This document shows positions 27,246 through 64,000 of a DNA stretch of 64,000 nt, piece after piece. Numbering within the stretch: position 1 is the stretch's first letter; every line of letters begins with the position of its first letter. The stretch comes from Macrostomum lignano (lineage: Eukaryota): assembly GCA_002269645.1 (NCBI GenBank), contig NIVC01001753.1, positions 1-64,000 of the forward strand, read 5' to 3'. The translations under genes and the position numbers were made by a program. The notes under the pieces were generated by a model. The model was not told the origin of the DNA. It saw only the letters and a list, made by a program, of their open reading frames with translations, and made no database searches.

Positions 27246-29819
27246 GACACTAATAAGACAGACACTAAGACATACACTAAGACAGATACTAGGACAGACA
27301 CTAAGACAAACAGGCAGACAGCCATCACTTTGTCTACTTTACACTAGGCCTGCTCCGTGGGCCTCAGTGTAAAGTGTGTTAACCCCACCCCACCCCCTTC
27401 GCCCACCTCTCCTCCGCCCCCCCCCTCCGCCGCGTGCCGGGGGTTCTTAAACCCAGTATTTTCTGGCTTGACCGTGTGCAAGTGCTTAGATTTATTTATT
27501 TTTTTCTCTTGTTTTTTTCTCCCCGGTTTTATCGATCAATTTCGAATTCGACGTACGCCCGTGTATTGCGCAAAATAAATGCAACATCCGAAGGGGTCGC
27601 CTTCCCCACCTCGTCGCTGCTTTGTGCTTGCTGCCAACCCGCCGCCTTTGCCTTCCTTTTGCTGCTTGTGGGGTTGCGGGTTAATCTCCACCTCCCTCAT
27701 CATTTGTTTCCTCAGACACGGTGACGCCGTCGACGCCGCCGCCGATTCAGCTGATGCCACCGCTAGCGGAAGTCGCGCCGCCGGCGTCGACCAGCTGCTG
27801 AGCCTGCTGGCTAACTACAGCCGCGGCCGGTCGGCCGGCGGAGTCGGCATCGGCGGCAGCATCGTAGTCGGCGTTGTCGGCTATCCAAACACTGGCAAAT
27901 CGTCGCTGATTAATTCGTTGAAACGAGCTCGAGTTTGCCCTACCGGAGCGACGCCTGGCCTCACTCGGGTTAGCCAAGAGGTCGCTCTTGATAAGAAAGT
28001 TCGCCTACTAGACTGCCCTGGCGTTGTACTGGCTAGCGGCGCTCCGGCTGCGCAGCTAATTTTAAGAAACTGCGTCCGAGTTGAAACTATTGAAGATCCG
28101 CTGCCAGCTGTTCAGGTGATAGTGGACAGGTGCGCCAAAGAGAAACTAATGGTGTTTTATTCTTTGCCGCAATTTTCCACTGCCGAAGAGTTTCTAATTA
28201 TTCTGGCCAAACGGATGGGCAAACTGAAGCGTGGCGGACTGCCGGACACTGCCGCTGCTGGGCGCAAGGTTAGTAGTCTGCTATAAAGCACTGTCTTTAT
28301 TGGGTAGCAGAGTGCGAGAGATTAGTGACAGTTGCCAGATTGACTAAGATGTCAGATTAGTGATAGATGTCAGACCAGTGACAGGGATGTCATATTAGTG
28401 ACAGGGATGTCAGATCAGTGATAGGGATATCAGATTAGTGATAGATGTCAGATCAGTGACAGGGATGTCAGATTAGTGACAGGGATGTCAGATTAGTGAC
28501 AGGGATGTCAGATTAGTGACAGATGTCAGATTAGTGACAGATGTCAGATTAGTGACAGGGATATCAGATCAGTGACAGGGATATCAGATCAGTGACAGGG
28601 ATATTAGATTAGTGATAGATGTCAGATCAGTGACAGGGATGTCAGATTAGTGACAGATGTCAGATTAGTGACAGGGATGTCATATTAGTGACAGGGATAT
28701 CAGATCAGTGACAGGGATATCAGATTAGTGATAGATGTCAGATTAGTGACAAGGATGTCAGATTAGTGACAAGGATGTCAGATTAGTGACAGATGTCAGA
28801 TTAGTGACAGGGATGTCAGATCAGTGATAGATGTCAGATTAGTGACAGGGATGTCAGATCAGTGACAGATGTCAGATTAGTGACAGGGATGTCATATTAG
28901 TGACAGGGATATCAGATCAGTGACAGGGATGTCAGATTAGTGACAGGGATGTCAGATCAGTGACAGGGATGTCAGATTAGTGACAGGGATGTCAAACCAG
29001 TGACAGGGATGTCAGATCAGTGACAGGGATGTCAGATCAGTGACAGGGATGTCAGACCAGTGACAGGGATATCAGACCAGTGACAGGGATATTAGACCAG
29101 TGATTAGGATTTCTCATTATGAATAACCCCGTCAGCTACGATATAAATCAAATTTCGCTACACAGGTGCTAAACGATTGGTCCAGCGGCCGCCTCACCTA
29201 TTACACGTTGCCGCCGGAAAACCCGGCAGCTCAGACAGCCAGCCAGCTTGAATTAGTTGGCCAGTGGTCCAAGGAGTTCAGCCTGGACACTGTCGATCTG
29301 TTGCCCAGCGAAGCCGACGGAGGCGGCGATTCGCTTGGCCGCGCGCCCGACGCTCTCGATACGGTGGTTAATCCGCTCGAGTCTGTTGCTATGGCAACGC
29401 TGGACGATGACAACAAGCAGGAGGCGGCTAGTAACGATGCCGCAATGGAAACGGACAATGATGAAGAAGAGTCTGGAGCCGAGGTGGACGAGAATCTAGT
29501 CGTGGACGCTAGCGAGTCGGTCAAATCTAGCGCCGGCGCCGATGTTCTGGAAGCCGCCAAAGAAGCTCGATTCCGCGCCGCTATGGCCGGCGCTCAGCAG
29601 AATCGAAGCCTGCGCCTTCAGGCCAAAAAGGCGCGCAAGAAGGCCAAACGGTTGGATCGAAATGCCGGCAAATTGGGCGGCGAATTCGAAGCCAAGATGG
29701 ACACCGTGCTGGACAGTCTGGCTGGTTTTGGCGGCGCCAAGAAGTCAACAGCAGCAACAACGGCAGCAGCTGGCCAAGCTGATTACGACTTTAATAAGCA
29801 CTTTCCGCCCAAAAACTAG
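21029..29819 (+). CDS. GNL3: Nucleolar GTPase GNL3/GNL3L (nucleostemin family); exons 21029-21047, 25788-25898, 26381-26634, 26819-27062 (1-nt frameshift near 26962), 27716-28268, 29166-29819
   Basis: N-terminus [31 protein letters not shown] and [11 protein letters not shown]. Circularly permuted GTPase motifs: [16 protein letters not shown] (G4), [16 protein letters not shown] (G1), LLDCPG (G3). Confidence 0.9.
21989..22755. mobile_element. Non-autonomous hAT-type element (MITE) in GNL3 intron 1
   Basis: Terminal inverted repeats TAGTGTTCCGCCATAG ... CTATGGCAGAACACTA, flanked by an 8-bp TSD ATAATCAA/ATAATCAG (7/8 match), with subterminal CTATGG repeats. Confidence 0.75.
27137..27318. repeat. 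(GACA)n-rich microsatellite in GNL3 intron
   Basis: Read directly from the sequence. Confidence 0.9.
28330..29105. repeat. 18-20-bp minisatellite GATGTCAGATTAGTGACAGG in last GNL3 intron
   Basis: Read directly from the sequence. Confidence 0.95.
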
Positions 29820-31440: not shown

Positions 31441-33011
<1,571 letters not shown>

Positions 33012-37811: not shown

Positions 37812-39578
37812 ATGAGCGCCAGAGAGCAGCAGCGATGGGGGCGGCCGGCTCGCGTAGCCGTTGTCGGCGCCGGCCTGGTTGGCGCCTCGGTCGCCCTACA
37901 GGCTCAGTCGGCGCTTCCGCCAGGCTCCTCCGTGACGATAATAGCCGATGCCTTCAACGCCGGCACCACATCCTGGGTGGCGGCTGGCGCATTTCGAGTT
38001 GAAAGCGTCGAGGAGCTGTCGCCGGACAGTCCGGACAGAGCAGAGCGCTGGTGCCGCGACTCGTTGCGTCATTTAAGCCGATTGGCCTTTGGCCCGGCCG
38101 GTCCGCGCGCCGGCGTGGCGCCACTGCCGATAGTTCAGGTGGCGCGGGAGCCGCCGCCGCGCCGACGCTACGCCTATTCTGATATGGCGCCCGGCGGTTG
38201 CCGCGAATTGACTCCGGAGGAATTGTTGACGCAGTTCCCCGACTGGCCAGGCGGGCTGGGCTTCGGCATAGAGAGCCTCAGCGTGCTGGCTGATCCCAGG
38301 CTCTACCTGCCCTGGCTGCTGGATCAGTTCTTGGCCGCTGGTGAGTCTTTGTTCTTGGTGTTTGAGCCCTGCAATCTGCAGTCAAGGCTTGGCAGATCTG
38401 AGGGATTAGGCTACTGATCCCTAATCTCCATTACAGTTGCTAATCCTCAGTTCAGGAGATTAGGCTACTGATCCCTAATCTTCATTTACAGTTGCTAATC
38501 CTCAGTTCAGGGGATTAGGCTACTGATCCCTAATCTTCATTTACAGTTGCTAATCCTCAGTTCAGGGGATTAGGCTACTGATCCCTAATCTCCATTTCAG
38601 TTGCTAATCCTCAGTTCAGGAGATTAGGCTACTGATCCCTAATCTTCATTTCCAGTTGCTAATCCTCAGTTCAGGAGATTAGGCTACTGATCCCTAATCT
38701 TCATTTCCAGTTGCTAATCCTCAGTTCAGGAGATTAGGCTACTGATCCCTAATCTTCATTTCCAGTTGCTAATCCTCAGTTCAGGAGATTAGGCTACTGA
38801 TCCCTAATCTCCATTTACAGTTGCTAATCCTCAGTTCAGGAGATTAGGCCACTGATCCCTAATCTCTATTTACAGTTGCTAATCCTCAGTTCAGGAGATT
38901 AGCCTACTTATCTTTAATCCAAAGTCAAAACCGCAGTTGTTAATCTCAAGCTAGCCAGTAATTCAGTTTGGGAGACTAAGCTGATTGGGGACCTGATCCC
39001 ATTGTGCAGGCGGCCGCATCGAGCGCCGCCGAGTCGCCAGTCTCGAAGAGGCGGGCGCCGGCGCCGACCTGGTGTTCAACTGCGCCGGTTTAGAGGCCGG
39101 CCGACTAGCCGGAGGCGACCCGGCCGTACATCCGGTCCGCGGCCAGGTGGCCCGGGTTCGAGCCCCCTGGCTAAAGCGGGGCTTCTACGGGCCGGACTCG
39201 ACCTACGCCTATCCCAGCGCTGCCCCGGGTGACCTGGCCACGGTTGGCGGCGTCCGTCAGGCTGGCGATTATTGCCTGACGGCCAGGGAGTCTGACGCTG
39301 CTGACATTCGAACCCGGGCCGTCCGCCTGCTGCCCGGCTTGGCCGCCGCGTTTGCCGACTCCGACGGGCGGCCTGGCGCGACTGGCGCAACGTCGACGTC
39401 GCAGCCGGATTTTGTTGGCCTCCGGCCGGCCCGACACGGCGGCATTCGGGTGGCCGCCGAGGGCTACGCCGTCCACTGCTACGGGCACGGCGGGCACGGC
39501 GTGGCGCTCAGCTGGGGCACCGCCGCGGAGGCAGTAGAGCTCGGCCTGGCCCGGCTAGACGGCGGCGCCAAGCTATAG
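37812..39578 (+). CDS. D-amino acid oxidase / D-aspartate oxidase family flavoenzyme, peroxisomal; exons 37812-38340, 39010-39578
   Basis: FAD-binding VAVVGAGLVG, TTSWVAAG, YLPWL, VFNCAGL, PVRGQV, GLRPAR, HCYGHGGHGVALSWGTA; C-terminal PTS1 tripeptide AKL. The intron is phase-1 GT/AG. DAO versus DDO cannot be resolved from sequence alone. Confidence 0.92.
38400..38910. repeat. ~55-bp intronic minisatellite containing an internal hairpin
   Basis: Unit GGAGATTAGGCTACTGATCCCTAATCT(C/T)CATTT(C/A)CAGTTGCTAATCCTCAGTTCA. Confidence 0.93.
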
Positions 39579-41870: not shown

Positions 41871-42058
41871 AATTGCTTATACAAACTTATAAGTCTCTTG
41901 CATAATCATTATCTATTAACTAGCGGCTATTTGCACTCTATAATGCATGCAGTTTGTCATGGACTGACCAAGCGAGTCGCGGCTGCATGATAGAATTAGC
42001 TCAGATTTTGTAAGTATTATTCATTATTACAGAAATATCAACAGCGCCAGCAACCGGC

Positions 42059-45000
42059 ATGGACAGCAGCCTACGCGGCAGAGAATTCCACTGTAGAGAG
42101 TGGGTATTCGACAAGCTCTTAGGCTACGTGAACGCCGGCCAGACTCCAGCACATCCTGGCGTCGTGTTGCTAGGCGAGAGCGGCTGCGGCAAAACCGCTT
42201 TGATGACTGAACTAATCTGGCCTACAGCTAGCCAAGCCAGCCCGGACGCCCGGCATCGGCTTCGCTCTCACGTGCTGGCTTATTATTTCTGCTCGCAGTT
42301 GTACAGCCACAGCCTGCGGCTCAGCCACTTCCTGTTCTCGCTGCGCCAGCAGATCGTCAAGCACCCGGAGGTCGGGCCGGCCTATGAGCAGCTGCTCCGG
42401 CGAACTGGCGGCGTTGAATTGTTCACCTATCGCTGTATGAACGACTCGCCAGACAGGGTGTTCGCTGAAGGCTTGCTGAAGCCTCTGCTGGCTTTGCAGC
42501 CGCCAGCCAGGCACTATCTGCTGCTGGTTGACGGTCTGGACGAGACTCGAACTCCGGACAAAGCGGCCGCGGCGGCTGCTGCCGCCGCTTCGGCGCCGTC
42601 GCGTAAGCAGCTGCAGCGAAGCGGCGGATCCACGGCGGCGGCCGCAGCACCGGCTGGGCCAAGCGGCTGCGTGTTCGACCTGCTGGCTCGGCATCAGCGC
42701 AGCCTGCCAGCCTGGCTGGTGCTCGTGTGCTCCTCCCGGCGCGATGACCGCCGGCTTAGCCGGGCCTTTGCCGGCTTCTCCAAGCTCCAGCTCACCGATG
42801 CCAGGAAGCCGCAGGTAGGGATTGGCTGTTGGGCTGGGTTGATTGGCATTCTGGCTGTCCGCTTCTGCATAGGATTACTGTCCGATTCTATTTAGGATTC
42901 ATGTCTGGTCCTAAGTGGGAGATTTATGTCTGGTCCTAATTGGGAGATTCATGTCCGGTCCTAGTTGAGAGATTTATGTCCGGTCCTAGTTGAGAGATTT
43001 ATGTCCGATCCTAGTTGAGAGATTCATGTCCGGTCCTAGTTGAGAGATTTATGTCCGGTCCTAGTTGGGAGATTCATGTCCGGTCCTAGTTGAGAGATTT
43101 ATGTCCGGTCCTAGTTGAGAGATTCATGTCCGGTCCTAGTTGAGAGATTCATGTCCGGTCCTAGTTGAGAGATTTATGTCCGGTCCTAGTTGAGAGATTC
43201 ATGTCCGGTCCTAGTTGAGAGATTTATGTCCGGTCCTAGTTGAGATATTTATGTCCGGTCCTAGTTGGGAGATTCATGTCCGGTCCTAGTTGAGAGATTC
43301 ATGTCCGGTCCTAGTTGAGAGATTTATGTCCGGTCCTAGTTGAGAGATTTATGTCCGGTCCTAGTTGAGAGATTCATGTCCGGTCCTAGTTGAGAGATTT
43401 ATGTCCGGTCCTAGTTGAGAGATTTATGTCCGGTCCTAGTTGGGAGATGTATGTCTGGTCCTAGTTGGGAGATGTATGTCCGGTCCTAGTTGGGAGATTT
43501 ATGTCCGGTCCTAGGTGGAGGATTTATGTCCGGTCCTAGTTGGGAGGTTTATGTCCGGTCCTAGTTGGGAGGTTTATGTCCGGTTCTATAGTTAGAATTA
43601 CTGTCCGGTTCTATAGTTAGAATTACTGTCTGGTTCTAAAGTTACGATCACAGTCCAGTTTTATAGTTGTCATTCGGGATGTTAAGTTAGGATTTCTAAG
43701 TTTTCCAGGTTTTCACGCTAAAAAACTCTGATTTTATTGCTGTCATCAATAAATCGAAGGTCCTCCGAGATGTTCAGCAGTTCATCCTGTGGCGCCTGGA
43801 TTCCAATGAGCAACTGCGCCAGCACCTCAACAGAGAGACCGCCTGCCTGCTTAACCAGCTGCACATCAAAGGCAACGCCTGCTTTGCCTATCTAGAGCTA
43901 GTGCTAGACGCCGTAGCTCAGGGTACCGTCCAGCTGTCCGAGGTTGCCCAGATGCCCGGCACCTTAGCCGGCGTGTTCCTCTATTTATTCCAGCGATTGT
44001 TCTCAACCGATCCGGAGCTGTGGCAGCTGGCCAGGTGCCTGCTGGCGCTGCTGCTGGCGCTGGGCGAGCCGGCGCCAGTTCGGCTGGCCTATCAGGCTGT
44101 CAGCGTGCAGAATCCCGGCCTCAGCTTTGCCCGATTCGCTGCCCAGGTTGCCCGGCTCAGGCTGCTGCTCAGGGCTACGCCGGACAGGTGAGTATAGTAG
44201 AGTTGGCATTATCCTGCAACCAGCGCTGAGGCAGTTCTGCCCATTCCACTGTACGCATTCACGCACTCACAGACACGCTCACACAGGGTGTACAGTGGCC
44301 CTTTGACTTTCTAATCGTCAGGCATGTACACTCTCTGTGCCTTGGTGGTTGGCCCTCATAGGTGTTGCATCGCACAAAATTTACCTGGGGTCTTGGCGCG
44401 ATAGTCAGATGTGATTATCGCTGAGGGCTCTGCCCTAAGACAAGGGGGAGAGCTGAAGGACAGGGAAAGATCTGAAGGACACGGGGAAAAGCTAAGGACA
44501 GGGAGAGAGCTGAAGGACAAGAGAGAGAGCTGAAGGACAGGGAGAGAGCTGAAGGACAGGGAGAGAGCTGAAAGACAGGGGGAAGAGCTGAAGGACAGGG
44601 GGAGAGCTGAAGGACAGGGGGAGAGCTGAAGGACAGGGAGAGAGCTGAAGGACAGGGGGAGTGATGAAGAACTTGCGCTAATCGAGCTTAGCCGCTCGCG
44701 CCAATCCCATCAGGTGCCTGGTGCTGGCGCACAACGCCCTATCGGACTGGCTGCAGGATGCCAAGTACTGCACGCCAGCCTATCTGGTTAGCCAGCGGCT
44801 TGGCCACTGCTTGCTGGCCGCTCACTGCCTCTGCTACTGGCGCCAGCCTCCGTCCGCTCCGGCCGAGCGAGCCGCTATGCTGCGAGACTTCGCCCGCTCC
44901 CTTCTAGCCGCCGGTTGCGGTTTGCAGCCTGAGCATCTGTTGCTGCTCACCCTGCTGCTACTGCGCCGCTGGTCCTGCGGTCCCAGGCTATTATTGAGAA

Positions 45001-48000
45001 TACGCGATCCGCCCGAGCTGCGCCTGATGGCCATTGCTCTGTTAAACTGGGACGAAGCTGTTGAACAGGAGGCCGCCTCTGTTGCCGCCTCGGCTAATCG
45101 GCCAATTGAACCGGCCGACACTCAGCTGTCCCTGGAGGACGAGGCCGTCGATGGCGACGACGGAGGCGGCTGCTCCGGATCGACTACGCCGCTAATGCTG
45201 GCCGCCTATGCCGGAGATTTGGCTACTATTGACAGGCTGCTGGCCGGGCCCAATTCTCAGGTTTGAATTTGTTAATTTCAATCTACTGTTAGTACTGTAG
45301 CTGCTAATTAGATGACGAGGCATTTGCTTATGAATATACAGTTAAAGTTACTACCGCTGTTTACCCGCCGTTCTTTAGTTGAACCGACGCGACTCCGGCG
45401 GCTACTCAGCCCTCGATTGGGCCCTGCTAGGCGGCCGGGCCGACGCCGTCACCCTGCTGTTGTCGCACGGCGCCAAGCCCGACGGTCCGCCTGGCTGCTG
45501 GGTGGCCCTGCCGCTGGCTTTGGCACTCGGCCGGCCGGATTTAGTCACCCTGCTGTTGAGCGCCGGCGCCGATCTTGACCGGGTGGACTCGGACGGTCGG
45601 ACAGCTTTGATGTTGGCCACGGCGCGCGGCCAATCGGAGCTGATCGGCCTGCTGCTGGACACCGGAGCTCGGGTTGATGCCCGAGACAATGGCGGCCGAT
45701 CGGCCCTGCTGTTGGCTGCCCTGTGCCTGCACGAGCCAATCAGCGTCGCCGCTATACAGCGACTGCTCGATGCGGGCGCCGATATTAACTTGGCCGACGC
45801 CGACGGCCGGACAGCCCTCATACACGCTTGCCTGGCTAAACGGCACGAGCTGATGGACTTCCTGCTGGATTCCGATGCGGATGTTGACAGGTGTGTGGAT
45901 CTGGGGGACTCTAGTTCTCTGTGTACTTTTGGTCATCGGGCTTACCCTCTTTATCGTATAGCTAATGTAGATTAGGCTCCTTACCGATCATCCTAACAGT
46001 AGCTTATGTTCCTGTCTAACAGGTTATGTTCCTGTCTAACAGGTTATGTTCCTGTCTAACAGGTTATGTTCCTGTCTAACAGGTTATGTTCCTGTCTAAC
46101 AGGTTATGTTCCTGTCTAACAGGTTATGTTCCTGTCTAACAGGTTATGTTCCTGTCTAACAGGTTATGTTCCTGTCTAACAGGTTATGGTCCTGTCTAAC
46201 AGGTTATGGTCCTGTCTAACAGGTTATGTCCTGTCTAACAGGTTATGTTCCTGTCTAACAGGTTATGTTCCTGTCTAACAGGTTATGTTCCTGTCTAACA
46301 GGTTATGTTCCTGTCTAACAGGTTATGGTCCTGTCTAACAGGTTATGGTCCTGTCTAACAGGTTATGGTCCTGTCTAACAGGTTATGTTCCTGTCTAACA
46401 GGTTATGTTCCTGTCTAACAGGTTATGTTCCTGTCTAACAGGTTATGGTCCTGTCTAACAGGTTATGGTCCTGTCTAACAGGTTATGTTCCTGTCTAACA
46501 GGTTATGTTCCTGTCTAACAGGTTATGTTCCTGTCTAACAGGTTATGGTCCTGTCTAACAGGTTATGTTCCTGTCTTCACTTTGCGATGCACATGTACAC
46601 TTCTCATTCTCTCTGATTGGCGCCCATCCTCAGATGCGACCGCGACGGTATTAGCGCTCTGCTGGTGTCCTCCCGACTCGGCGACTTTCGCGCAGTTCAA
46701 GCCCTGCTCTTCTTTAACGCCAATCCGCACCAGCTGGACAGGCACGGCCGCTCCGCCCTGTCTCTGGCCGCTGTCTCCGGCCAGTCAGCCGTGGTGGAAG
46801 CACTTCTGGCTCGCGGCCTCGACGAGGGCCACGCCGACAATGCCGGCTTGACTGTGCTGCACCATGCCGCCGGAGCCGGACACGCCGACGTCTGCCAGCT
46901 GCTGTTGGGTAGGTTGCCGGATATATTGGGTAGGTTACCGGCTGTATTGGGTAGGTTGCCGGCTGTATTGGGTAGGTTGCCGGCTGTTTTGGGTAGGTTA
47001 CCGGCTGTATTGGGTAGGTTACCGGCTGTATTGGGTAGGTTGCCGGCTGTATTGGGTAGGTTGCCGGCTGTATTGGGTAGGTTACCGGCTGTATTGGGTA
47101 GGTTACCGGCTGTATTGGGTAGGTTGCCGGCTGTATTGGGTAGGTTGCCGGCTGTATTGGGTAGGTTGCCGGCTGTATTGGGTAGGTTACCGGCTGTATT
47201 GGGTAGGTTACCGGCTGTATTGGGTAGGTTGCCGGCTGTATTGTGTAGGTTGCCAGTGGCAATGATTCGGTAGTTTCAAACCTGCTCTTTTCCTACCCTC
47301 TTTCACAGGCAACGGCGCGGCCACTCGCTCCCAGGACTCGGCCGGCCGGACGCCCCTCCTGTTGGCCGTCCTGTCCGGCCAAGCCGAAGTGGCGGCCCTC
47401 CTGGCCGAGACCGACCGGTTGGCCGCCGGGATTCCCGGACACGACGAGGACGGCTTAACTCCGCTGCTGGCCGCCTTCCAGCTTGGCCGGCCGGACCTCC
47501 TCGAGCTGCTGCTGTCCCGCGGTGCCGATCCCAACATGACCGACCGGGCCGGCCGATCCCTGCTGTACCTGGCCGCGGCCGCCTCGGAGGGTGGGTGCAG
47601 CTTAGCCAGCCTGCTGCTGGATTGCGGCGCCTCGTCAAACCTGGCCGACGAGCAGGGCCGGACACCGCTGCACGTTGCTGCCTGGCTTGGCCGGGCCGAA
47701 GCAGCCGGCCTGTTGATCAGCCGGGGCGCCGACGTCAACGCCAAGGACGCCGACGGTGGCAGTGCGTTGAGCGCCGCCGCCTGGCAGGGACAGGTGAGGC
47801 GTCAAATTAAAATGAATGTCAGATCGAATGACCTGTAGCTATGAACGATTTAAATGACCTGTAGCTATGACCGATTTGAATGACCTGTAGCTATGACCGA
47901 TTTGAATGACCTGTAGCTATGACCGATTTGAATGACCTGTAGCTATGACCGATTTGAATGACCTGTAGCTATGACCGATTTGAATGACCTGTAGCTATGA

Positions 48001-49668
48001 CCGATTTGAATGACCTGTAGCTATGACCGATTTGAATGACCTGTAGCTATGACCGATTTGAATGACCTGTAGCTATGACCGATTTGAATGACCTGTAGCT
48101 ATGACCGATTTGAATGACCTGTAGCTATGACCGATTTGAATGACCTGTAGCTATGACCGATTTGAATGACCTGTAGCTATGACCGATTTGAATGACCTGT
48201 AGCTATGACCGATTTGAATGACCTGTAGCTATGACCGATTTGAATGACCTGTAGCTATGACCGATTTGAATGACCTATAGCTATGACCGATTTGAATGAC
48301 CTGTAGCTATGACCGATTTGAATGACCTGTAGCTATGACCGATTTGAATGACCTGTAGCTACGACCGACAGAATAAACAGCTATGACTCCATGGGGGGCC
48401 GTAGCCCAGCGGTAGCGCAGCTGCTCTGGTGTGCCAGCGACCCAGGCTCGATTCCAAGTGCAGTCACATTAATTTGGGGCTGAATTGGAATCTCGGCTTG
48501 GCTCTGCTCGTGCAATTAACGGCCTTGAGAGCCAACCCCCCAAGGCGCAGTGAAGTGTAGTACATACCTAACGATAATATAAAGTTAGGGCCGCTGTACA
48601 CTCCTGTGTGAGTGTGTGCCTGCGTACGTATCCGCGCGCTTGTATGCCTGCTCAGGGGAGTCGGCGGAATGGGCAGTAATGCCTCTCGCCGGTTGTGTGC
48701 CTATGTCGCTTAAAGTGCGCCAGGGTGCACACAGCCCCCCTGCCTCTAATAAAAAAACAGCTATGACTCCATATCGATGGCCTATAAAATTATCATGGGT
48801 TATTAACAAGTTATAACTGGTTAGGAAATAACCTTTGCATATGAGTCTATGACCGGTCTACTGACCGCAGCTATAAAAGTGACAATTACAAACGCACCTG
48901 TCAATCAAGGCTCACCTGTGCCAGCTGCTGCTAGCCAACGGCGCTGAAGTGGACTCAGTCTGCCGGCAGGGCGCCACGCCGCTGTGCATCGCCGCACAGG
49001 AGGGCCACCTGGCCGTCTGCCAAGTCCTGCTGGACGCCGGCGCCCGCGCCAACCACGTTGACAGAATCGGCCGGACCCCGTATCGGGTGGCCGTGAAATG
49101 CGGACACCGTCAGGTGGCCGAGCTGCTTCTGGCCCGTGGCGCCTCGCCGGGCGTCGCCTCATCTAGCAGCAACGGCGGCGGCGGTGGCGGCAGCGGCAGC
49201 GGTGCCACAGGCGGCAGCGGCGGCTCCGGCGGCTCCTCCGGCGGCGGCGGTTCGGGCTTCACTCGAATCACTCCTATACAGGGGGGTACGTTCAACAGTC
49301 AGCACCAGCTGTACCAGCATCATCAGTATCCGCATCATCGCGAGCTGCATCAGTTCCAGCAGCAGCAGCAACAGCCGCCAAGATCGAAGCCGACTCTGCA
49401 ACTAATACTTAACAATGGCGCCACAGTGATCAATGCCAACGCGTCCGATTTGTCCAACTCGTCGCCCGAGGAAGCGGCTTCCGCTGCGGCCGGTTCCGCC
49501 GTATCCGCAATCGGCAGGGGCGCCTCGCGTCGGAATGGCGACAAGCGGCGGCGAGCTGCAGTGGCGGCGGCGGCGGCCCAGCGGCAGGCGGAGGACGAGC
49601 TGCTTGCCCGGCGGGCGGCGGCCGGCATCCGCCTGCAGAGCGGCGATCGAAAAGAGACGGCGTTCTGA
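42059..49668 (+). CDS. ANKRD50: Ankyrin repeat domain-containing protein 50 (P-loop NTPase/NACHT-like plus ankyrin repeats); exons 42059-42814, 43760-44187, 44714-45260, 45379-45890, 46634-46908, 47309-47793, 48910-49668
   Basis: FHCREWVF, Walker [18 protein letters not shown], Walker [20 protein letters not shown]...[23 protein letters not shown], then many TPL/ALxxA ankyrin repeats. Phase-consistent GT/AG junctions. Confidence 0.88.
42898..43590. repeat. 25-bp intronic minisatellite ATGTCCGGTCCTAGTTGAGAGATTT
   Basis: Read directly; ANKRD50 intron 1. Confidence 0.95.
44450..44660. repeat. ~19-bp purine-rich repeat GAGAGAGCTGAAGGACAGG
   Basis: Read directly; ANKRD50 intron 2. Confidence 0.9.
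46007..46577. repeat. 20-bp intronic minisatellite GTTCCTGTCTAACAGGTTAT
   Basis: Read directly; ANKRD50 intron 4. Confidence 0.96.
46903..47252. repeat. 21-bp minisatellite TATTGGGTAGGTTGCCGGCTG spanning the exon 5 donor site
   Basis: The first unit overlaps the exon end (TTGG/GTAGGT). Confidence 0.95.
47824..48368. repeat. 26-bp intronic minisatellite GAATGACCTGTAGCTATGACCGATTT
   Basis: Read directly; ANKRD50 intron 6. Confidence 0.96.
48394..48570 (+). mobile_element. tRNA-derived SINE (second family)
   Basis: GGGGGCCGTAGCCCAGCGG (A box) and GGCTCGATTCC (B box), followed by a non-tRNA body. Confidence 0.55.
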
Positions 49669-52820: not shown

Positions 52821-53493
52821 GTTTTGTGAAGGCTGCCAAGCTGACGGATGAACAGCTATTCAAGTTGCCTGCCGATCTGATTGGACCTCACGAATCCACT
52901 TTAATTGTCCTCCAAGTCTGCTTGGCGATAACCTTGGCCTGCATGTCTGCAGAGGCCTTGACCACCACCACATGAGGCAGCGCTTGTGTCGCCATCGAAT
53001 GGCGCACCTGAATGTGCTTTGCGTAAAAATTTTGTGTTGGTCAAGTTGTACATTCCTATCCATTTCATATGCTTTTTCTTAAAATTGTAGGGGAAAACGT
53101 GTATGATTTTCCTTGCATTCGCTATTATGATCATCGTCTCTAAGAATGAAAGCCTATAGCCGGCTTTGGGAAATCCTTTTCTTTTATCGGTCAATGAACC
53201 GGTGTTAGGCTTTCTGTTCACTGTGGTCTTAATTTGTCCAGGGAACATAGCAAAGCAAAATTATTGTCGCATTGCGATAACCTACCCTGGATAATCCAAG
53301 GCACAACAAAATCGGGCTTTGAAATATCCTGGGTCTTGAATTGTCCGGGGTGAATAAAGATTGGGGTGGCAGGTTTGTCAAATTATGTAAATGCGTGGGG
53401 CAGAAGGACACCATTAAGCGAGAATGGGACTGACTCATAATACACCAGTAGAAGGCATGAGGGGGCTTTTGGGACAAAATTTTTCACGTCCTC

Positions 53494-53700
53494 CATAATC
53501 CCAGTAAATCCATCCATATTATCCCCGACAGAAACAGAAAAAAGGGGGGTCGCACTCGCTCACAAAACCTCCTCCATAATCCCATTAAATCCATCCATAT
53601 TATCCCCGACAGAATCAGAAAAAAGGGGGGTCGCACTTGCTCCGAAAACTTCGAACATAATCCCATTAAATCCATCCATATTATCCCTGACAGAATCAGA
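53494..53700. repeat. 81-bp direct repeat (~2.6 copies) in the viral left region
   Basis: CATAATCCCA starts at 53494, 53575 and 53656. Confidence 0.9.
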
Positions 53701-54168: not shown

Positions 54169-55032
54169 TTACATTCTCTCAATGATTAACGTCAATACAA
54201 ACTCTTCACCGTTGAAATCAACACCCATCCCATCTTCAGTCTCAAACTGTAGCACAATCTCGTGAATCTTTTTATTACTCAATACAACTCTTTTCACTGG
54301 ATTTGGTTTCTCTACCACCATCTGTCCTCCAGCAACAGAGTTGGAGATGTTGTACAAAATATTCGTTCGCTTTCCCTTAAATACCCAATCAAGACTGAGA
54401 TTGCTTCTGATTAGAATATTCAAACCCTTTACAATGTCTGCAATATTGGGTGCTAAGAACAAACCGCTTACACTTTCCCGGACCATTCTAACAGTTCCCG
54501 ATGCTTGAGTGGCGGTCCGCGCCGCGGATTCTGCCTTATAAACTTTCTTCTCGAATCCCAGTTCCCTATACCAAGTGTCATCTTTAAACTCAACCTCCGC
54601 ATCTTTGTGAACTTGCATGACCACTCTCATTACAGTGAGATCATAGGTTAGTTTGACAGGGAACAGTTTCTTCTCTGGCTTACTCGCATCAGGTGTCTCA
54701 AAATGGCCTCTCTTAGTAAAGACATTTTCTAGAAAGTTATTGTAGGTATCCACACTTTGCGTGCTCACATGGAATACCACAGGGTCTGCTGCTGCACCTT
54801 TCCATTTGTAATAAAACTTATTATTTGCTGCCATCACATTGGGAACGTTTGACCAACCAGTGAAGTCGTTAAGATAGACATGGTAATTAGCGCCTGGATC
54901 CAGGCGAATCGCCTGCTCTAATTTTTCAACAAACATCCCGTTTGAGTCATTAATTCGCCCAGTTATTGTAATAGGAATGCTCTCCTTGGAGTGAGAAACA
55001 ATATTATTTAGTCTTTCAGCAATCGCTTCCAT
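54169..55032 (-). CDS. Putative minor capsid protein (penton-like single jelly roll) of a Polinton/adintovirus
   Basis: IRLDPGANYHVYL...SNVPNVMAANNKFYY at the N-terminus and IHEIVLQFETEDGMGVDFNGEEFVLTLIIE at the C-terminus match the Polinton minor capsid pattern; lies directly downstream of the MCP. Confidence 0.75.
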   Translation of the reverse strand: MEAIAERLNNIVSHSKESIPITITGRINDSNGMFVEKLEQAIRLDPGANYHVYLNDFTGWSNVPNVMAANNKFYYKWKGAAADPVVFHVSTQSVDTYNNFLENVFTKRGHFETPDASKPEKKLFPVKLTYDLTVMRVVMQVHKDAEVEFKDDTWYRELGFEKKVYKAESAARTATQASGTVRMVRESVSGLFLAPNIADIVKGLNILIRSNLSLDWVFKGKRTNILYNISNSVAGGQMVVEKPNPVKRVVLSNKKIHEIVLQFETEDGMGVDFNGEEFVLTLIIERM

Positions 55033-55447
55033 TTTTTTTCACATAAAAAAATATTTAAACTTTACTGGATGAATTGTTGATCATGTTAAGCTTCACCTTC
55101 CTCTCAAATGCATAGATAATGTACAGGTCCACGGGTGTTGCGGTAGTCCTCTCAATGTTAGTCACGATATTCACAGGGCTGTTATCAGTAGGCATTTGTC
55201 TGGCAGACACATCAGCGCCAAACATCGGATATAGAGTTCCATATTGAAGAGCAGTGATAGCAATTCCATTGTTCTCTTTCACAGCCAAGTCGACCAACTC
55301 GCTGTAAAATTTGCTAATCTTGTTCTGACTGAAATCTCCATTTTGTGGCAGTGCAGGGTAAAGATTATCACTGATTTCATGCTGAATGGACCGCACGTCT
55401 CCATGCATGTAGCGTATAATGCTATTTGGGTTTCTCATATTAATAAT

Positions 55448-55682
55448 TGTTGTGAATTGAACTCCGGCTGAAGTATTTAACTCATGAGCTTAAGATTCTT
55501 TATATTTCTTATTTTGAAAGAGATCAGAAGGGTGAGCTATAGGAACTTTGGGCTGGGTTAATTACCATAGAAGAAACTGTAGCGATAGAATGCTTAGAGG
55601 CGATTAGTGCAAACAAACGGCATAGAATAACGAACTTGAACTTATATAAACTATAGTGCATCTCAGTGTGCGATACACCACA
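55448..55682 (-). repeat. 3' LTR (235 bp, TGTGGTG...CACAACA)
   Basis: Matches 59554-59780; preceded on the minus strand by a polypurine tract. Confidence 0.93.
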
Positions 55683-55785
55683 TGCCCCTCCCTATATTCA
55701 GAAGATGTCAATTGGAACAGAGAAGTCGTTTCATGTCGTTTCATTAGTTTCGCGTTTTTTTTTTCAACCCTCCTCGGATACCAGT

Positions 55786-58137
55786 TTAAGGCACAAAGCG
55801 CTCAGGAGCGGATCGGTTTCTGAGGCTCCTTCTCAGCTGAACGGCTTCTTCAGGCACGGGTGTCTGAATCCCTGCGACTGGCTCGTTTCCGGTTTCTGGC
55901 ACGCTGTTAGTCTCATCTTCGTCCTCCATCTCGAATTCCGATGGCTGGGTGGCCATTGGGGCAAGTTGATTTGTGCTTGCAAGGCGAAGCCCATCGTCAG
56001 CGAGGATCCATGCTGTGTTTTGACCTGCCGTCATCACGAACTTTGCCGGGTTGCCGACTGAGGAGCTGCTTGGCGCATAGATCACGCTGTCACCCTGTTC
56101 GAAGTTGGTCACCACCGGGACTCTGAGTCGCCGTCCAAAAAGAATTTCGGCTGGGCAGCAGCCCCGCGAAGAGGCTGAGTTTCTGTGGTGCAGGAGGACC
56201 TTTTGCAAGAAGCGGCTAAACTCCATGTGCGTAATTTTTTCAGACCAGGCCCTTAGTGCGGACTTGACGGTCTGAACGGCCCTTTCTGCGGCTCCATTCG
56301 CCTGCGGGTAATAGGTGGGTAACTCGAGCTTCTTGGCACCATTGGCGCGGAGCCACGATGTGAGCACTTCAGTGGTGAACTCTGGGGCGTTGTCCGAAAC
56401 CACCAGCTCGGGGACGCCGAACCGTGTGAATACGGTACGCAGGCACTGAATGACTGAATCAGCTGTGCGATCGCGGCAAGGAAATGCTTCTATCCAGCCG
56501 GAAAAGGAATCCACGATGACCAGGATGTTTCCAGCGCCTTTTACGTATGCCCAGTCCATGTGTACGCGCTGGAACGGATACGTTGATGGAGGCCAGCGAT
56601 CCCTGTCGTGGCCGAGTTGAGGCCGAAGCCTGCAGCAGTCTGGACAGCGTCGAACAAACTGGGCAACGTCCTGTTGCATTCCGGGCCACCAGCAGCTGGT
56701 AGACATTAGACTGTGCGCTGCATGCATGCCCGTGTGCGTGTCGTGAATGGCATCGAACGCGGCCTTGCGCAGTCTTGGTGGAATGAAGACTCTTCTTTGC
56801 ATGTAGAGTAGTCCATTTTCTAGCGTTTTGTTTGAGACTTTTTTGAACTGCGCTTCTGCCTGGCTGCAGTTTCGCCAATCGCCTTGGCGGACGCGATTGA
56901 GAATTCTCTGGGTGAGCGCGTCTAACTCCATCTCCGCTGTGATTCGTTTAGCGTCGATCACAGGTGATTCAAATGCGATTGAATTAATCGTCTCGAATGT
57001 GGCCTTGTCGTCTGATGAGCTGTCATCGAATCTGAGTCTGGATAAGGCATCTACGTGTGGAATGCTACTGCCACGTGCATACTGAATTCGGTAATCAAAC
57101 TGCATCAGGTACAAAACCCAGCGTCCGATTCGGGCTGAGGCATCCACTGGGACGCCGGATCCGGAGCCAAAAAGTCGGATGAGCGGTTGATGGTCTGTGC
57201 GTATTGTGAATGGTCGGCCATGGAAGTAGTGCTTCAAGCGTGCGATGGCCCAAACAATAGCCAAGGCCTCCCGCTCGATGTTAGAATAATTGGATTCAGC
57301 GGAGGACAGGCTACGTGACACGTATATCACGGGATGGCCATCTTGTGTTGCCACGGCGGCGAGGGCTCCTTTGGAAGCATCAGTGGTCAGCGTCAGTTCC
57401 TTTGTCAAGCTGTAGGGCTGGACCACAGGCGCTGAAGCGATTTCCAGCTTTAGGCTCTCGAACGCTTTGGAACACTCCTCCGACCACACGAACGGAACGC
57501 TTGCTTGTCGTAGTCTATTAAGCGGTGCAGTTTTGCCTGCAAAGTTTGGGATGAGGCGGCCGAAGAAGTTTACCAAGCCAAGAAAGTGAGCGAGCTCTGA
57601 TTTATTTGCTGGCGGGCACACATGGCGAATTTTCTCCACTAGGCGATCATCGGGCTGAATACCAGCCGCGGATATTCGGAAGCCCAAGAACGAAACCGAA
57701 TCGCAATAGCTGATGCTTTTCGCTTCGTTGATAGTCACGCGCTTCTCAGATAGACGCGTTCGCACAGCAGCGAGGCGCTTCTCCAGCGTGGGTTTGTCTG
57801 GCGCGTGAATGAGAATGTCGTCTTGGTAGATAAGCAGTCCTTTGATGTCTCCTAGAATGGATTCCATGGTGCGTTGGAAGATGAAGGAGGCGTTCTTCAT
57901 CCCCATTTGCAGCCGATTGACACGATAGAGCCCGCGGGACGTGTTTATTACCGATAGGTCTCTCGCGGCTTCATCAAGCTCGATCTGCCAGTACGCCGAA
58001 CGTAGATCGACTGTGGCGAAAGTTTTGGCGTTCTTTAGCTTGGAGAACATGGTCTCGATGTGTGGAATGGGATATGAGTCTGATTTGATCTTCGAATTGA
58101 CGTGCACGCTGTAGTCCGCGCACATGCGGAGTTCCAT
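55786..58137 (-). CDS. Pol: reverse transcriptase, RNase H, integrase (frameshifted from the upstream gag-protease ORF near 58135)
   Basis: RT motifs LRMCADY, VDLRSAYWQ, YQDD; RNase H motifs TTDASK, EREALA, TDHQPL; integrase HHCC (HDTH...CPDC) and D-D-E (IVDSFS, SDNAPEF, AERAV). Confidence 0.95.
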   Translation of the reverse strand: MELRMCADYSVHVNSKIKSDSYPIPHIETMFSKLKNAKTFATVDLRSAYWQIELDEAARDLSVINTSRGLYRVNRLQMGMKNASFIFQRTMESILGDIKGLLIYQDDILIHAPDKPTLEKRLAAVRTRLSEKRVTINEAKSISYCDSVSFLGFRISAAGIQPDDRLVEKIRHVCPPANKSELAHFLGLVNFFGRLIPNFAGKTAPLNRLRQASVPFVWSEECSKAFESLKLEIASAPVVQPYSLTKELTLTTDASKGALAAVATQDGHPVIYVSRSLSSAESNYSNIEREALAIVWAIARLKHYFHGRPFTIRTDHQPLIRLFGSGSGVPVDASARIGRWVLYLMQFDYRIQYARGSSIPHVDALSRLRFDDSSSDDKATFETINSIAFESPVIDAKRITAEMELDALTQRILNRVRQGDWRNCSQAEAQFKKVSNKTLENGLLYMQRRVFIPPRLRKAAFDAIHDTHTGMHAAHSLMSTSCWWPGMQQDVAQFVRRCPDCCRLRPQLGHDRDRWPPSTYPFQRVHMDWAYVKGAGNILVIVDSFSGWIEAFPCRDRTADSVIQCLRTVFTRFGVPELVVSDNAPEFTTEVLTSWLRANGAKKLELPTYYPQANGAAERAVQTVKSALRAWSEKITHMEFSRFLQKVLLHHRNSASSRGCCPAEILFGRRLRVPVVTNFEQGDSVIYAPSSSSVGNPAKFVMTAGQNTAWILADDGLRLASTNQLAPMATQPSEFEMEDEDETNSVPETGNEPVAGIQTPVPEEAVQLRRSLRNRSAPERFVP

Positions 58138-59553
58138 CCTTCTTCTTTACCCACACTACGGGTGAAGCGTTACTAACCGGACCCTCTGTTGGCTCGATGA
58201 CACCAAGTTGGTGGAGGCGATCCAGTTCTGCGCTGATTTGGCTTTCTAGGGCGAGTGGCACAGCACGAGCGCGGCAAAATTGTGGTTTAGCACCGTCCAC
58301 CAGTTCCATTCGGGCCTTAACGCCTCGGATACAGGGCAGAGGTTCGATGGCATTTTTTTCTGCTTGAACATCGCTGGCATGGAAGACACCGTCAGACTCG
58401 AGGAGGTCGCGGCCAAGCAACCCGTGCGTCTTTTCCGAAGAGACTACAATCAGTTCCACTGGTTGAAGGCGTCCTCGTAGCTCCACAGTTGCAGTCACTT
58501 TGCCAAGCGATTTCATGACGTGCCCGTCGAAGGCCTCCAAGCGCCGATTGGAACGCATGAGTGGTGGCTTACCCAGTAGAGCCCACTGCGCACTGGAGAG
58601 CACGGAGACTGATGCTCCCGTGTCGATCTGCATTTTGAAGGGCTTATCGTTGATGCGCACAGTCTCCATAGATACTTCAATCGAATTGAGCGCATCGATG
58701 AGATGCAGTACGTATGTTTTTTGTTGGGCGGAATCTGAATCCTCCTCACAAGTAGTCGTGTAGTGCATGGATCGAGACTTACAAACAGTACTGAAGTGGT
58801 TTTTCTTTCCACACTTGTAGCAGCTTTTTCCGAAAGCCGGGCATCTGCCTTCAGGGTGTGACTTGCCACAGTACCGACAGGCGCTGATTGTGCGACGAGA
58901 GCTTGCATGCTGCGATGTCTCAGGCCGACCGGATTGAGCGTAATGAAGGGTGGCTTCGTAGGTGCATGGTGATTTAGATTGGCCGGTTGCCTTGTCCATC
59001 TGCCTGGCGACGAAGCCATCGACTTGCTCTAGGTTGCGTATGAAGTCCGTGATTTCTGAGACGGACATCAGTTTCAGCTGCATTGCTTCGAGTACGCGCT
59101 GCTGCTCCCGGCTATCGCGCAGTCCTGCGATGAGTGCCGTACTGATTAGCTCCTCGGAAGGGCTTCTGCATGCCTTGAGGTCGTCGAACTTGCAGTCAGT
59201 GGCCGCCTGGCGGAGACGACTGACGAAATCAGAAATGCTTTCTCCTTGCAGTTGTTGCGTCTTGAAGAATCGCGCGCGCTCAGCGATTATCAGTTTCTCT
59301 TTGGGGCGCAGATACGTGGCAAATGTCGTCTGAATATCCTCGAATGAGAGCTCCGTGAGTGGGCGTGGCGACACCAGACTCTGCAGCTTTTCAAGCGCGG
59401 TGAGTCCACAGATAGCGAGAAAGTTGTCAGCGAACGTTTTTTTTCGGTTGAATCAGACCAGCCTTTCGCTCTGGCCAGCGCTTGAAAGGCAGTCAGCCAA
59501 ACCTGTGCTCGGTCAGGTTTATCCAGCGGCAGTTCGCCGAGCTGCGACGCCAT
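57974..59553 (-). CDS. Gag (two CCHC knuckles) plus aspartic protease; 1-nt frameshift in the A8 run at 59437-59444
   Basis: CRYCGKSH...CPAFGKSCYKCGKKNHFSTVC and QIDTGAS. Adding one A joins MASQLGEL...DSTEKK to TFADNFLAICG...VSPRPLTEL. Confidence 0.9.
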
Positions 59554-59780
59554 TGTTGTGAATTGAACTCCGGCTGAAGTATTTAACTCATGAGCTTAAG
59601 ATTCTTTATATTTCTTATTTTGAAAGAGATCAGAAGGGTGAGCTATAGGAACTTTGGGCTGGGTTAATTACCATAGAAGAAACTGTAGCGATAGAATGCT
59701 TAGAGGCGATTAGTGCAAACAAACGGCATAGAATAACGAACTTGAACTTATATAAACTATAGTGCATCTCAGTGTGCGAT
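59554..59780 (-). repeat. 5' LTR lacking its first 8 bp (TGTGGTGT)
   Basis: Direct comparison with the 3' LTR. Confidence 0.92.
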
Positions 59781-61040
59781 CGCCGTTTTCAGTGTGCGAA
59801 CGGGTGTTGCGGTAGTCCTCTCAATGTTAGTCACGATATTCACAGGGCTGTTATCAGTAGGCATTTGTCTGGCAGACACATCAGCGCCAAACATCGGATA
59901 TAGAGTTCCATATTGAAGAGCAGTGATAGCAATTCCATTGTTCTCTTTCACAGCCAAGTCGACCAACTCGCTGTAAAATTTGCTAATCTTGTTCTGACTG
60001 AAATCTCCATTTTGTGGCAGTGCAGGGTAAAGATTATCACTGATTTCATGCTGAATGGACCGCACGTCTCCATGCATGTAGCGTATGATGCTATTTGGGT
60101 TTCTCATATTAATAATGATATACCTTGGATTGCTGCATGATCCCTCTTTGATGCAGATGTTTGTTCTAGTTTCGTTTCGCTCATCTCGACACATGTAGGC
60201 CGTGTATGCAACATCAATGTCCTTCTCTATTGCCTTAAGATAATCCACTTTTAGTACAGTCTTTGGCTCAATGACTTCCAAATACAGCTCGATTCCGGTT
60301 AGCTTCACCTCCATCCTTGTGTGGTCCGCCCCAGTCCACAACACTCTACTGCGATCATCTCTAGTCAGTCTAAATGTGTAGCTAAAGTTACTAGTCAGTC
60401 GATTAAATGTATTACAGAATCCACTCATGAATCTCAATGGTACAAATACATCAACAGACCGATACTGCGGGTTCTTAGCAGCATCATCTGCACCTTGCAA
60501 TGCATAGTTGTATCTCTTCTTCCTATTTTTATAACCACTGTCATTGATGTCTCCTTCTTTTTCGTCTGCAATAAAACCCGCACCACTTCCCAATTGAATA
60601 AAATCAGGATTCTCGATCAAACAATGAGCGTCATAGACAATTCCAAAGTTGGCGAGTCGCTCCAACTCAGTGCTCCCATTCGATACACTAAACTCCTTGA
60701 ACATGTACGCCCAAAAGTAACTGATCAGAGCCACATCCGCATCATGCTTGTCAACGTTAGCACGAGCCGCATCCGCACCACCCTTTGTCTTGAATTGAAA
60801 TGTCATATGGAAGCCGCTCTTAAGACTGTGCACACTAACCAAAGACGAACATCCATTGTATGTAAATGTCAGTGTTTGACCAGGACCAAGATTAGTTTTA
60901 TTCTGATTTTCCTGACTGGGAACTCTTACCTGAGTCGCTTTGATTGTGCTATCATCACTCAAAATAGGCTTGTTAATTTTGTAGAAAACTGGTGTCAGTG
61001 GGTCGTTCATTTTTTAACTAAAAATAAAATAAAATAAGAA

Positions 61041-62327: not shown

Positions 62328-63128
62328 ATGGACTTCACAAACGACTTTCATCCCCACTGGACACGCAATCAGATAAAATTTGCTCACAACGAGATAATTC
62401 CAGGGCACTTCCGATGCATTGTTGTTGGCTCATCTGGGTCAGGGAAAACCTTCAGAGTTTTTAACATGCTCCTCAGACCTGGATTCCTCGATTATGATAC
62501 ACTACATATCTATTCACCCACTCTGTATCAAGATGAGTATAAAATGCTAGTAGCGGGCCTACAGAACAAACTCAACAAGGAAGATATTATTCAATGTTTT
62601 AGACATCAAAAAGACCTCAACAGCAACCCGGAAGTTGTAGCCACTGAATACGCAAAGCACATCCCAGACAATGAAAAATGGCAAAACATTAAAGTTTTCA
62701 CTTATGGAGATCCACAGATAGATCCTAAAACTAAACTCTTACCTCAACCTGATGAACTAGAAAAGGGGAGAAAGCACCTGATTGTCTTTGATGACTGCAT
62801 GACCGGTCCCCAGAAACAGATAGAAAATTATTTCACCCGGGGTAGACACAATAACTGCAATGTTATTTACATTGCCCAAAACTGGTTTGAACTGCCAAAT
62901 AAAACAATTAGAGGTAACTGTAATTTGATTCTCCTTTTCCCAACCATACCACAGGATCGACTGAAATGATTTTATAATGAGGTCATTGCCCCAGCTCACA
63001 TTACATATCCAGCTAAGAACTCTAACAGAACAATATCACAGGAGGAATTTGTTAACATATGCTATGAAAAGTGGAATCAACCCTATCAGTTTGTCATGAT
63101 TAATAAGGAGAAAAGAATTTTACTTTAA
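62328..63128 (+). pseudogene. FtsK/HerA (A32-like) DNA packaging ATPase with one in-frame TGA at 62967-62969
   Basis: Walker A GSSGSGKT, Walker B LIVFDDC and RGRHNNCNVIYIAQ. The same frame continues past the TGA to EEFVNICYEKWNQPYQFVMIN and TAA at 63126-63128. Confidence 0.88.
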
Positions 63129-63145
63129 TTTTTTTATTTAAAAAA

Positions 63146-63914: not shown

Positions 63915-64000
63915 ATGGCCCAAAAAATTCTCTATACGATCAGTCTCAATACGCTGAACCTAAAATACCGACAGCACCAAACTCGATGGCACCGAATTCG
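63915..64000 (+). CDS. 5' end of the next viral ORF (truncated by the window end)
   Basis: GAAAAAAATGGCC start context; frame uncertain because of an A-run. Confidence 0.4.
   Translation, partial: MAQKILYTISLNTLNLKYRQHQTRWHRI

Follow-up and report, generated by a model that had tools for sequence, protein, structure and literature searches.

The window is the whole 64,000-nt stretch of DNA analyzed here, positions 1 to 64,000 of Macrostomum lignano contig NIVC01001753.1 (assembly GCA_002269645.1). Host coding pieces were found for a PPPDE peptidase (18761-19267, - strand) and, on the + strand, for a GTPase (27579-28286), a G-protein alpha subunit (32022-33011) and an FAD oxidoreductase (38997-39578). 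Within 42014-49668 (+) lie further fragments of host genes, which carry NACHT/AAA, TANC1-like and ankyrin domains and have minisatellite-filled stretches between them. Dense arrays of 20-65-bp minisatellites, many of them near-identical, occupy 7700-52800, in line with the 15% of simple and tandem repeats that the consulted text of the genome report gives for M. lignano (PMC5730564). The locus under study is an LTR element of ~4.3 kb, carried on the minus strand and inserted in a double-jelly-roll capsid gene. The features are listed in window coordinates.

54169..55032, - strand: intact viral-like ORF after the capsid gene; no Pfam match; the nearest Atlas clusters are viral and unnamed, with recognition below threshold
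55055..55130, - strand: last ~24 codons of the capsid gene, the native continuation of the duplicated segment
55131..55447, - strand: duplicated target segment beside the 3' LTR, corresponding to capsid residues ~299-404 of homologue P0001
55448..55682, - strand: complete 3' LTR, 235 bp, TG...CA, with an 8/10 terminal inverted repeat; its U5 end meets the target with no extra base
55685..55693, - strand: polypurine tract, 2 nt before the 3' LTR, named by position and composition
55786..59553, - strand: gag-pol, with two zinc knuckles, protease, RT, RNase H and integrase, env absent, in three frames
59542..59552, - strand: probable primer-binding site, named by position; its TGG start lies one base past the 5' LTR, and it overlaps the gag start
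59554..59780, - strand: clipped 5' LTR, 227 bp, LTR positions 9-235 only
59781..59799, no strand assigned: filler, 19 bp; 59789-59799 a direct LTR copy, 59782-59788 a possible inverted copy
59800..60116, - strand: duplicated target segment beside the filler, the repeat match to 55131-55447
60117..61010, - strand: 5' part of the double-jelly-roll major capsid gene of a Polinton-like endogenous element (PF21738, E=1.4e-6; 76% to the 428-aa P0001)
62328..62969, + strand: A32-like packaging ATPase (Pox_A32, E=5.2e-7), ending at an in-frame stop

The interrupted gene belongs to a virus-like element that continues past the window edge at 64000 and combines a double-jelly-roll major capsid gene with an A32 ATPase, as Polinton-like viruses and adintoviruses do. 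Judged by its position, the intact ORF that follows the capsid gene possibly encodes the minor capsid protein. Three copies of an ~81-bp unit at 53486-53700, just past this last viral ORF, may lie close to the element's left end. The ATPase frame (62328-63131) has an in-frame stop after 213 residues, followed by ~52 further sense codons, and the virus-like copy is therefore damaged besides the insertion. A PDB search with the capsid piece returned one match only (E=0.2), an exact look-up of five viral ORFs of the window in the protein collection found none of them, and a literature search for Macrostomum, Polinton and capsid found no paper.

The two capsid pieces overlap in the part of the protein that they encode. 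Against the 428-aa P0001, the right-hand piece covers residues 1-404 and the left-hand piece residues 299-428, both at 75-76%. The alignments of ten of 15 capsid homologues run over the 55131/55130 boundary into the C-terminus, and those of the remaining five end short of it; all six full-length homologues tested lack an internal repeat. These alignments indicate that the segment was single in the ancestral capsid gene, a state judged from protein homologues and not from an empty allele, and they rule out a repeat native to the gene; the doubling goes with the ends of the inserted element. The first-pass annotation had called for a comparison with uninterrupted copies of the virus; at the protein level, capsid homologues carry the duplicated segment once. 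One close capsid relative, P0142, is 92-95% identical in two matched parts and has an in-frame internal deletion of ~170 residues.

The inserted element is a Ty3/Gypsy retrotransposon, as first proposed from the letters alone. Pfam places protease, RT, RNase H and integrase in this order without env, the motifs YQDD and D-35-E are present together with the zinc knuckles, and direct TG...CA LTRs are accompanied by a polypurine tract and a primer-binding site, the latter recognized by position only. The window contains no tRNA gene, and no tRNA matching the probable primer-binding site was found. The assignment is further borne out by three M. lignano sister Gag-Pol proteins of 1257 aa that are 98-99% identical to the window copy (best 99%). 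These are the full-length members of a seven-member protein cluster, one member of which is the window's own pol ORF. At 10 residue positions the window copy departs from each of the three full-length sisters, and it has frame breaks near 59443 and 58130, one of the two in a homopolymer run. It may have moved in trans, decayed later, or bear consensus errors. To judge from the seven cluster members, three of them with a full 1257-aa Gag-Pol, the family has recently been active. In its single gag-pol ORF, paired zinc knuckles and primer-binding site over the start codon the element resembles the Mag clade, to which it may belong.

The consulted text of a Ty3/Gypsy survey of M. lignano assigns 78 of 137 families to the Mag clade (Ustyantsev et al. 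2025, PMC12801592). That survey covers the same genome assembly and superfamily as the element described here, and target site duplications (TSDs) are not treated in the text consulted. The LTR motif and gene name of our element were not found in its five supplementary files, as far as the text of long cells was displayed, and the heat-shock element pattern of Ustyantsev et al. is absent from the LTR. A scan of genome contigs for sister LTR DNA returned one locus only (L001), without an LTR pair: an RT-like stretch 27% identical to Gag-Pol on a 2,950-bp contig of a bacterial MAG, possibly eukaryotic contamination. The reading frame of the LTR continues in frame into gag at the 5' LTR (59290-59595, -), and at the 3' LTR it enters the C-terminal capsid piece as an open frame of 144 codons (55055-55489, -); this shared frame is probably due to chance.

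The element lies exactly between two 317-bp repeats. Segments 55131-55447 and 59800-60116 match throughout, apart from a single difference, A at 55418 and G at 60087, and the repeat diagonal ends abruptly on both sides, with no similarity past either edge. Both the length of the repeat and its one A/G difference had been read correctly in the first-pass annotation, as had the lack of a conventional TSD: no 4-6-bp direct repeat surrounds the element, whether the filler is counted in or out. The duplication is real in the assembly and well beyond chance. Since the window has no N bases, we ruled out a scaffold gap as the source of the structure. The 55418/60087 difference falls at a third codon position and leaves an Ile unchanged in the capsid frame, an outcome expected for 21% of possible changes and 33% of transitions. 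The two LTRs are identical over the 227 bp that they share (0/227 differences), and with 1/317 between the repeats this fits a single young event. No further LTR copies occur in the window.

The two ends of the element differ in kind. At the U5 end the LTR terminates exactly at CA, and the duplication begins precisely at this normal-looking end. The 5' LTR lacks its first 8 bp, which include most of the U3 attachment repeat, and has lost its own TG end. The earlier claim of a terminal 8-bp deficit holds if the LTR starts at 55682, a position chosen from the window's own sequence. Of the 36 starts tested, 55682 is the sole one with an 8/10 terminal inverted repeat; the runner-up reached 5/10, and alternative starts, with 5/10 or less, were rejected. 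From 55682 the LTR opens with TG, and a 9-nt purine run lies 2 nt away. Concerted LTR integration leaves a 4-6-bp TSD and CA at both ends, and neither the short TSD nor an intact U3 end is present here. On the window + strand the clipped end is a 3' end, the strand that integrase would have joined.

The 3' LTR end had initially been called perfect. It is exact at CA, with no extra base, but the call is ambiguous in one respect: the LTR-end match extends 2 nt (AT) past the U5 side, with the target after CA and the primer-binding side both starting with AT. This dinucleotide makes up 9% of local dinucleotides. Had an unprocessed end been joined through 2 bp of microhomology, the junction would look identical. 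Because AT stands at the target and the primer-binding side alike, integrase processing at U5 is something that we infer rather than observe.

The clipped end is joined to the target by 19 bp of filler. A length of ~20 bp had been given at first; the filler is present, but what had been counted as base 20 belongs to the LTR, at position 9. Read on the + strand, the filler closes with 11 bases (59789-59799) that are a direct copy of LTR positions 10-20, which upholds the earlier claim that 11 bp of the LTR start are copied (p <= 0.002). Among 20,000 random 19-mers, 2 to 44 equalled this match as the flank considered ranged from 25 to 230 bp (p 1e-4 to 2e-3). Seven further bases (59782-59788) match LTR 59721-59727 in inverted orientation, with uncorrected p values of 0.03, 0.04 and 0.11 for flanks of 60, 100 and 230 bp; the match is absent within 25 bp. 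These values lend weak support to an inverted LTR copy. The 11-bp tract thus gives the junction an insert templated from the break flanks, as polymerase theta end joining does, and the inverted tract adds to this only weakly. No distant template accounts for the entire filler, nothing above 11 bp being matched in the window. The join of filler and target has no clear microhomology, with overlaps of 2-3 bp possible for the inverted tract. An 8-bp palindrome at 59776-59783, centred on the cut, takes in the clipped end of the LTR and the start of the filler, and it is overlapped by 6 bp that match LTR 59705-59710 in inverted orientation. Neither is significant alone, and both are compatible with fold-back priming.

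We consider it probable that integrase joined the U5 end to the target and that the clipped U3 end was fixed 317 bp off by a host polymerase and end joining. The element belongs to a Ty3/Gypsy family with recent activity, and its presence in the capsid gene is itself plain; it would have landed there by integrase joining CA-3' of its U5 end to the target at 60116/55447. The U3 end would have been left unjoined, either made short or trimmed by 8 bp. A host polymerase would then have built a 19-bp patchwork from the LTR's own end, with one direct tract and probably one inverted tract. By its signature the polymerase would be polymerase theta; it is the copied sequence that is seen, and the enzyme is deduced from it. 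The padded U3 end would finally have been attached to the target 317 bp to the other side of the first cut, with synthesis over the interval doubling it. Three features fit this course of events: one junction is exact and the other clipped and padded; the truncated end is also extended, with 8 bp lost and 19 bp of filler gained, 11 bp of it copied from the LTR; and a large host duplication starts at the element's normal-looking end and doubles an interval that, by its protein homologues, was previously single-copy. Against one-ended integration stand the AT ambiguity at U5 and the synonymous change between the repeats, a mild hint that a second allele may have served as template; there is also no clear homology at the filler/target join, although such homology is usual in the HIV model. 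The reading rests on one assembled locus, and the event, so read, is a one-off accident, not a functional system.

One-ended integration is already known as a class, both experimentally and in nature, and the premise of the first-pass annotation, that retroviral DNA with a defective end can be joined with the help of host repair to give large duplications, has published counterparts in XMRV and HIV-1/ASLV. XMRV clone C-3, one of 15 proviruses, carries a 273-bp duplication and has lost 5 bp, CA among them, from the U3 end of its left LTR; its other end is normal, and the authors attributed it to uncoordinated integration (Kim et al. 2010, PMC2857682). A long target duplication and a U3-clipped LTR opposite a normal-looking end recur at our locus. 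However, C-3 is a gammaretrovirus in a cell line, and the consulted part of that report mentions no filler, whereas ours is a retrotransposon without an envelope, located in the genome assembly of an animal and accompanied by 19 bp of templated filler. Aberrant HIV-1 and ASLV proviruses, as described in the consulted text of Varadarajan et al. (2016, PMC5041404), combine a normal end and an often truncated one with duplications of hundreds to thousands of bp. Viral sequence of either orientation can be appended, in a model in which a host polymerase extends a free viral 3' end primed on viral or host DNA. The clipped end, the LTR-derived added sequence and the host duplication of hundreds of bp are shared with our locus. 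Those cases were induced by inhibitors, integrase mutants or engineered ends, whereas the locus here is natural. Wild-type HIV integrase gave 0/99 and 0/85 aberrant proviruses, which counts against our preferred reading. The final join in HIV-1/ASLV was modelled as homologous recombination, usually with short homology, which is not evident here. Among natural inherited LTR elements, HERV-K (HML-2) also has long flanking duplications: of 451 putative TSDs, 8 exceed 10 bp, and 6 of these measure 61-450 bp (Kahyo et al. 2017, PMC5488345). HERV-K is an older endogenous retrovirus for which, in the text consulted, the mechanism is not fixed and pseudo-TSD models are open, whereas our locus keeps both LTRs, the clipped end and the filler. 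Two further papers were set aside as precedents on the text consulted: a long-read study of Arabidopsis that collected only TSDs under 15 bp (PMC12312487), and a rotifer paper whose match was a reference-list title on a non-LTR element (PMC7943196). The anatomy therefore matches published cases, and to that extent one-ended integration stands as first proposed; the parts assigned to integrase at U5 and to polymerase theta are what we infer from it.

The same sequence would result if a U3 junction had been integrated normally and had then broken. Both ends would then have integrated normally, after which the U3 junction broke, for instance at an unrepaired gap; the target side was extended by 317 bp on an element-free sister or homologue, and aborted synthesis-dependent strand annealing (SDSA) ended in end joining to the trimmed LTR. 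In C. elegans, polymerase theta seals aborted SDSA into tandem duplications of 100 bp to 10 kb whose inserts are templated and at times patchwork (Kamp et al. 2021, PMC8654963, text consulted). Their inserts are of the same type as our filler, although these duplications have no transposon in the junction, come mainly from helq-1 mutants and seldom arise in wild-type worms. The synonymous difference would suit copying from a second allele, and the line carries extra large chromosomes according to the consulted text of PMC5730564. We regard this course as unlikely: it needs a break no more than ~8 bp from one end of a 4.3-kb element, a position that is natural only if breakage and integration were coupled, and the filler shows no remnant of a short TSD.

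Capture without integrase is very unlikely in our judgement. Here a full-length unprocessed cDNA would be end-joined into a double-strand break, with repair doubling the 317 bp. The U5 junction can equally be written as LTR plus AT with a 2-bp target overlap, which chance would provide in ~9% of cases, and the filler does show end joining at the opposite side. This course requires a break, over-synthesis and a whole cDNA with one end undamaged, and AT on the unprocessed end is itself expected only by analogy with primer removal in retroviruses. Under a complete block of integration, insertion of DNA is all but absent (Varadarajan et al. 2016, PMC5041404, text consulted).

We hold an assembly artefact to be less probable again, in which both duplication and filler arose from a mixture of copies with and without the interruption, or from the polishing of a repeat edge. 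Merged normal and empty alleles would give neither a join of the segment end to a clipped LTR nor a filler templated from the LTR; the locus has no N gap, and the 317-bp repeat and the 4.3-kb element both fit inside the span of a long read. The window copy does have its two frame breaks, one of them in a homopolymer run. The protein searches yielded no independent sequence with the junction: short capsid fragments gave six matches (best 92%), none with the filler-encoded tail, and none of the 145 proteins gathered matched both element and flanks. The genome itself favors such errors. According to the consulted text of PMC5730564, assembly Mlig_3_7, which the BOX15 gene names suggest as the source, was built with Canu (errorRate 0.04) and then Pilon from an aneuploid line, a hidden polyploid, with 180-312 Mb of redundancy and 63.95% error-free bases by REAPR. 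Least probable of all are two insertions 317 bp apart in two virus copies, fused through the shared element by recombination or assembly, or entry into a prior tandem duplication. Pseudo-TSD models have been discussed for HERV-K (PMC5488345, text consulted), and close capsid relatives (92%) exist. Such histories still leave the clipped and filled end unaccounted for, and the element sits exactly between the repeats without a short TSD. For the fusion, moreover, a second insertion in the same orientation within 500 bp has a rough chance of 8e-6 to 1.6e-3, with copy numbers assumed.

One-ended integration is thus our preferred reading: an integration accident of a known kind, here in a clean, natural form and in a group of elements new to it. 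With narrow terms, we found no LTR-retrotransposon or Gypsy example in the open-access literature; this absence is weak evidence because the search was confined to open-access sources and to those terms. Being one locus, it brings no new enzyme or system to light, and the insertion knocks out one capsid gene in an endogenous virus-like element that is damaged in any case. Its value lies in an unusually complete natural footprint, with the exact end, the clipped end, the templated filler and the long duplication all intact, of a repair route so far mostly studied with drugs or mutant viral ends.

It is conceivable, if improbable, that in the germ lines of invertebrates Gypsy elements regularly integrate by one end, are completed by theta-type repair and escape counting; alternatively, only this family would do so, should processing of its U3 end be poor. 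If so, such copies would be dropped by annotators who require a 4-6-bp TSD, they would be a steady source of gene-segment duplications, and this locus would be the first fully preserved non-retroviral example within the open-access literature searched. If the locus is confirmed, the route would be extended from retroviruses to Gypsy retrotransposons, in a host animal with transgenesis in which its frequency and its dependence on POLQ would be measurable.
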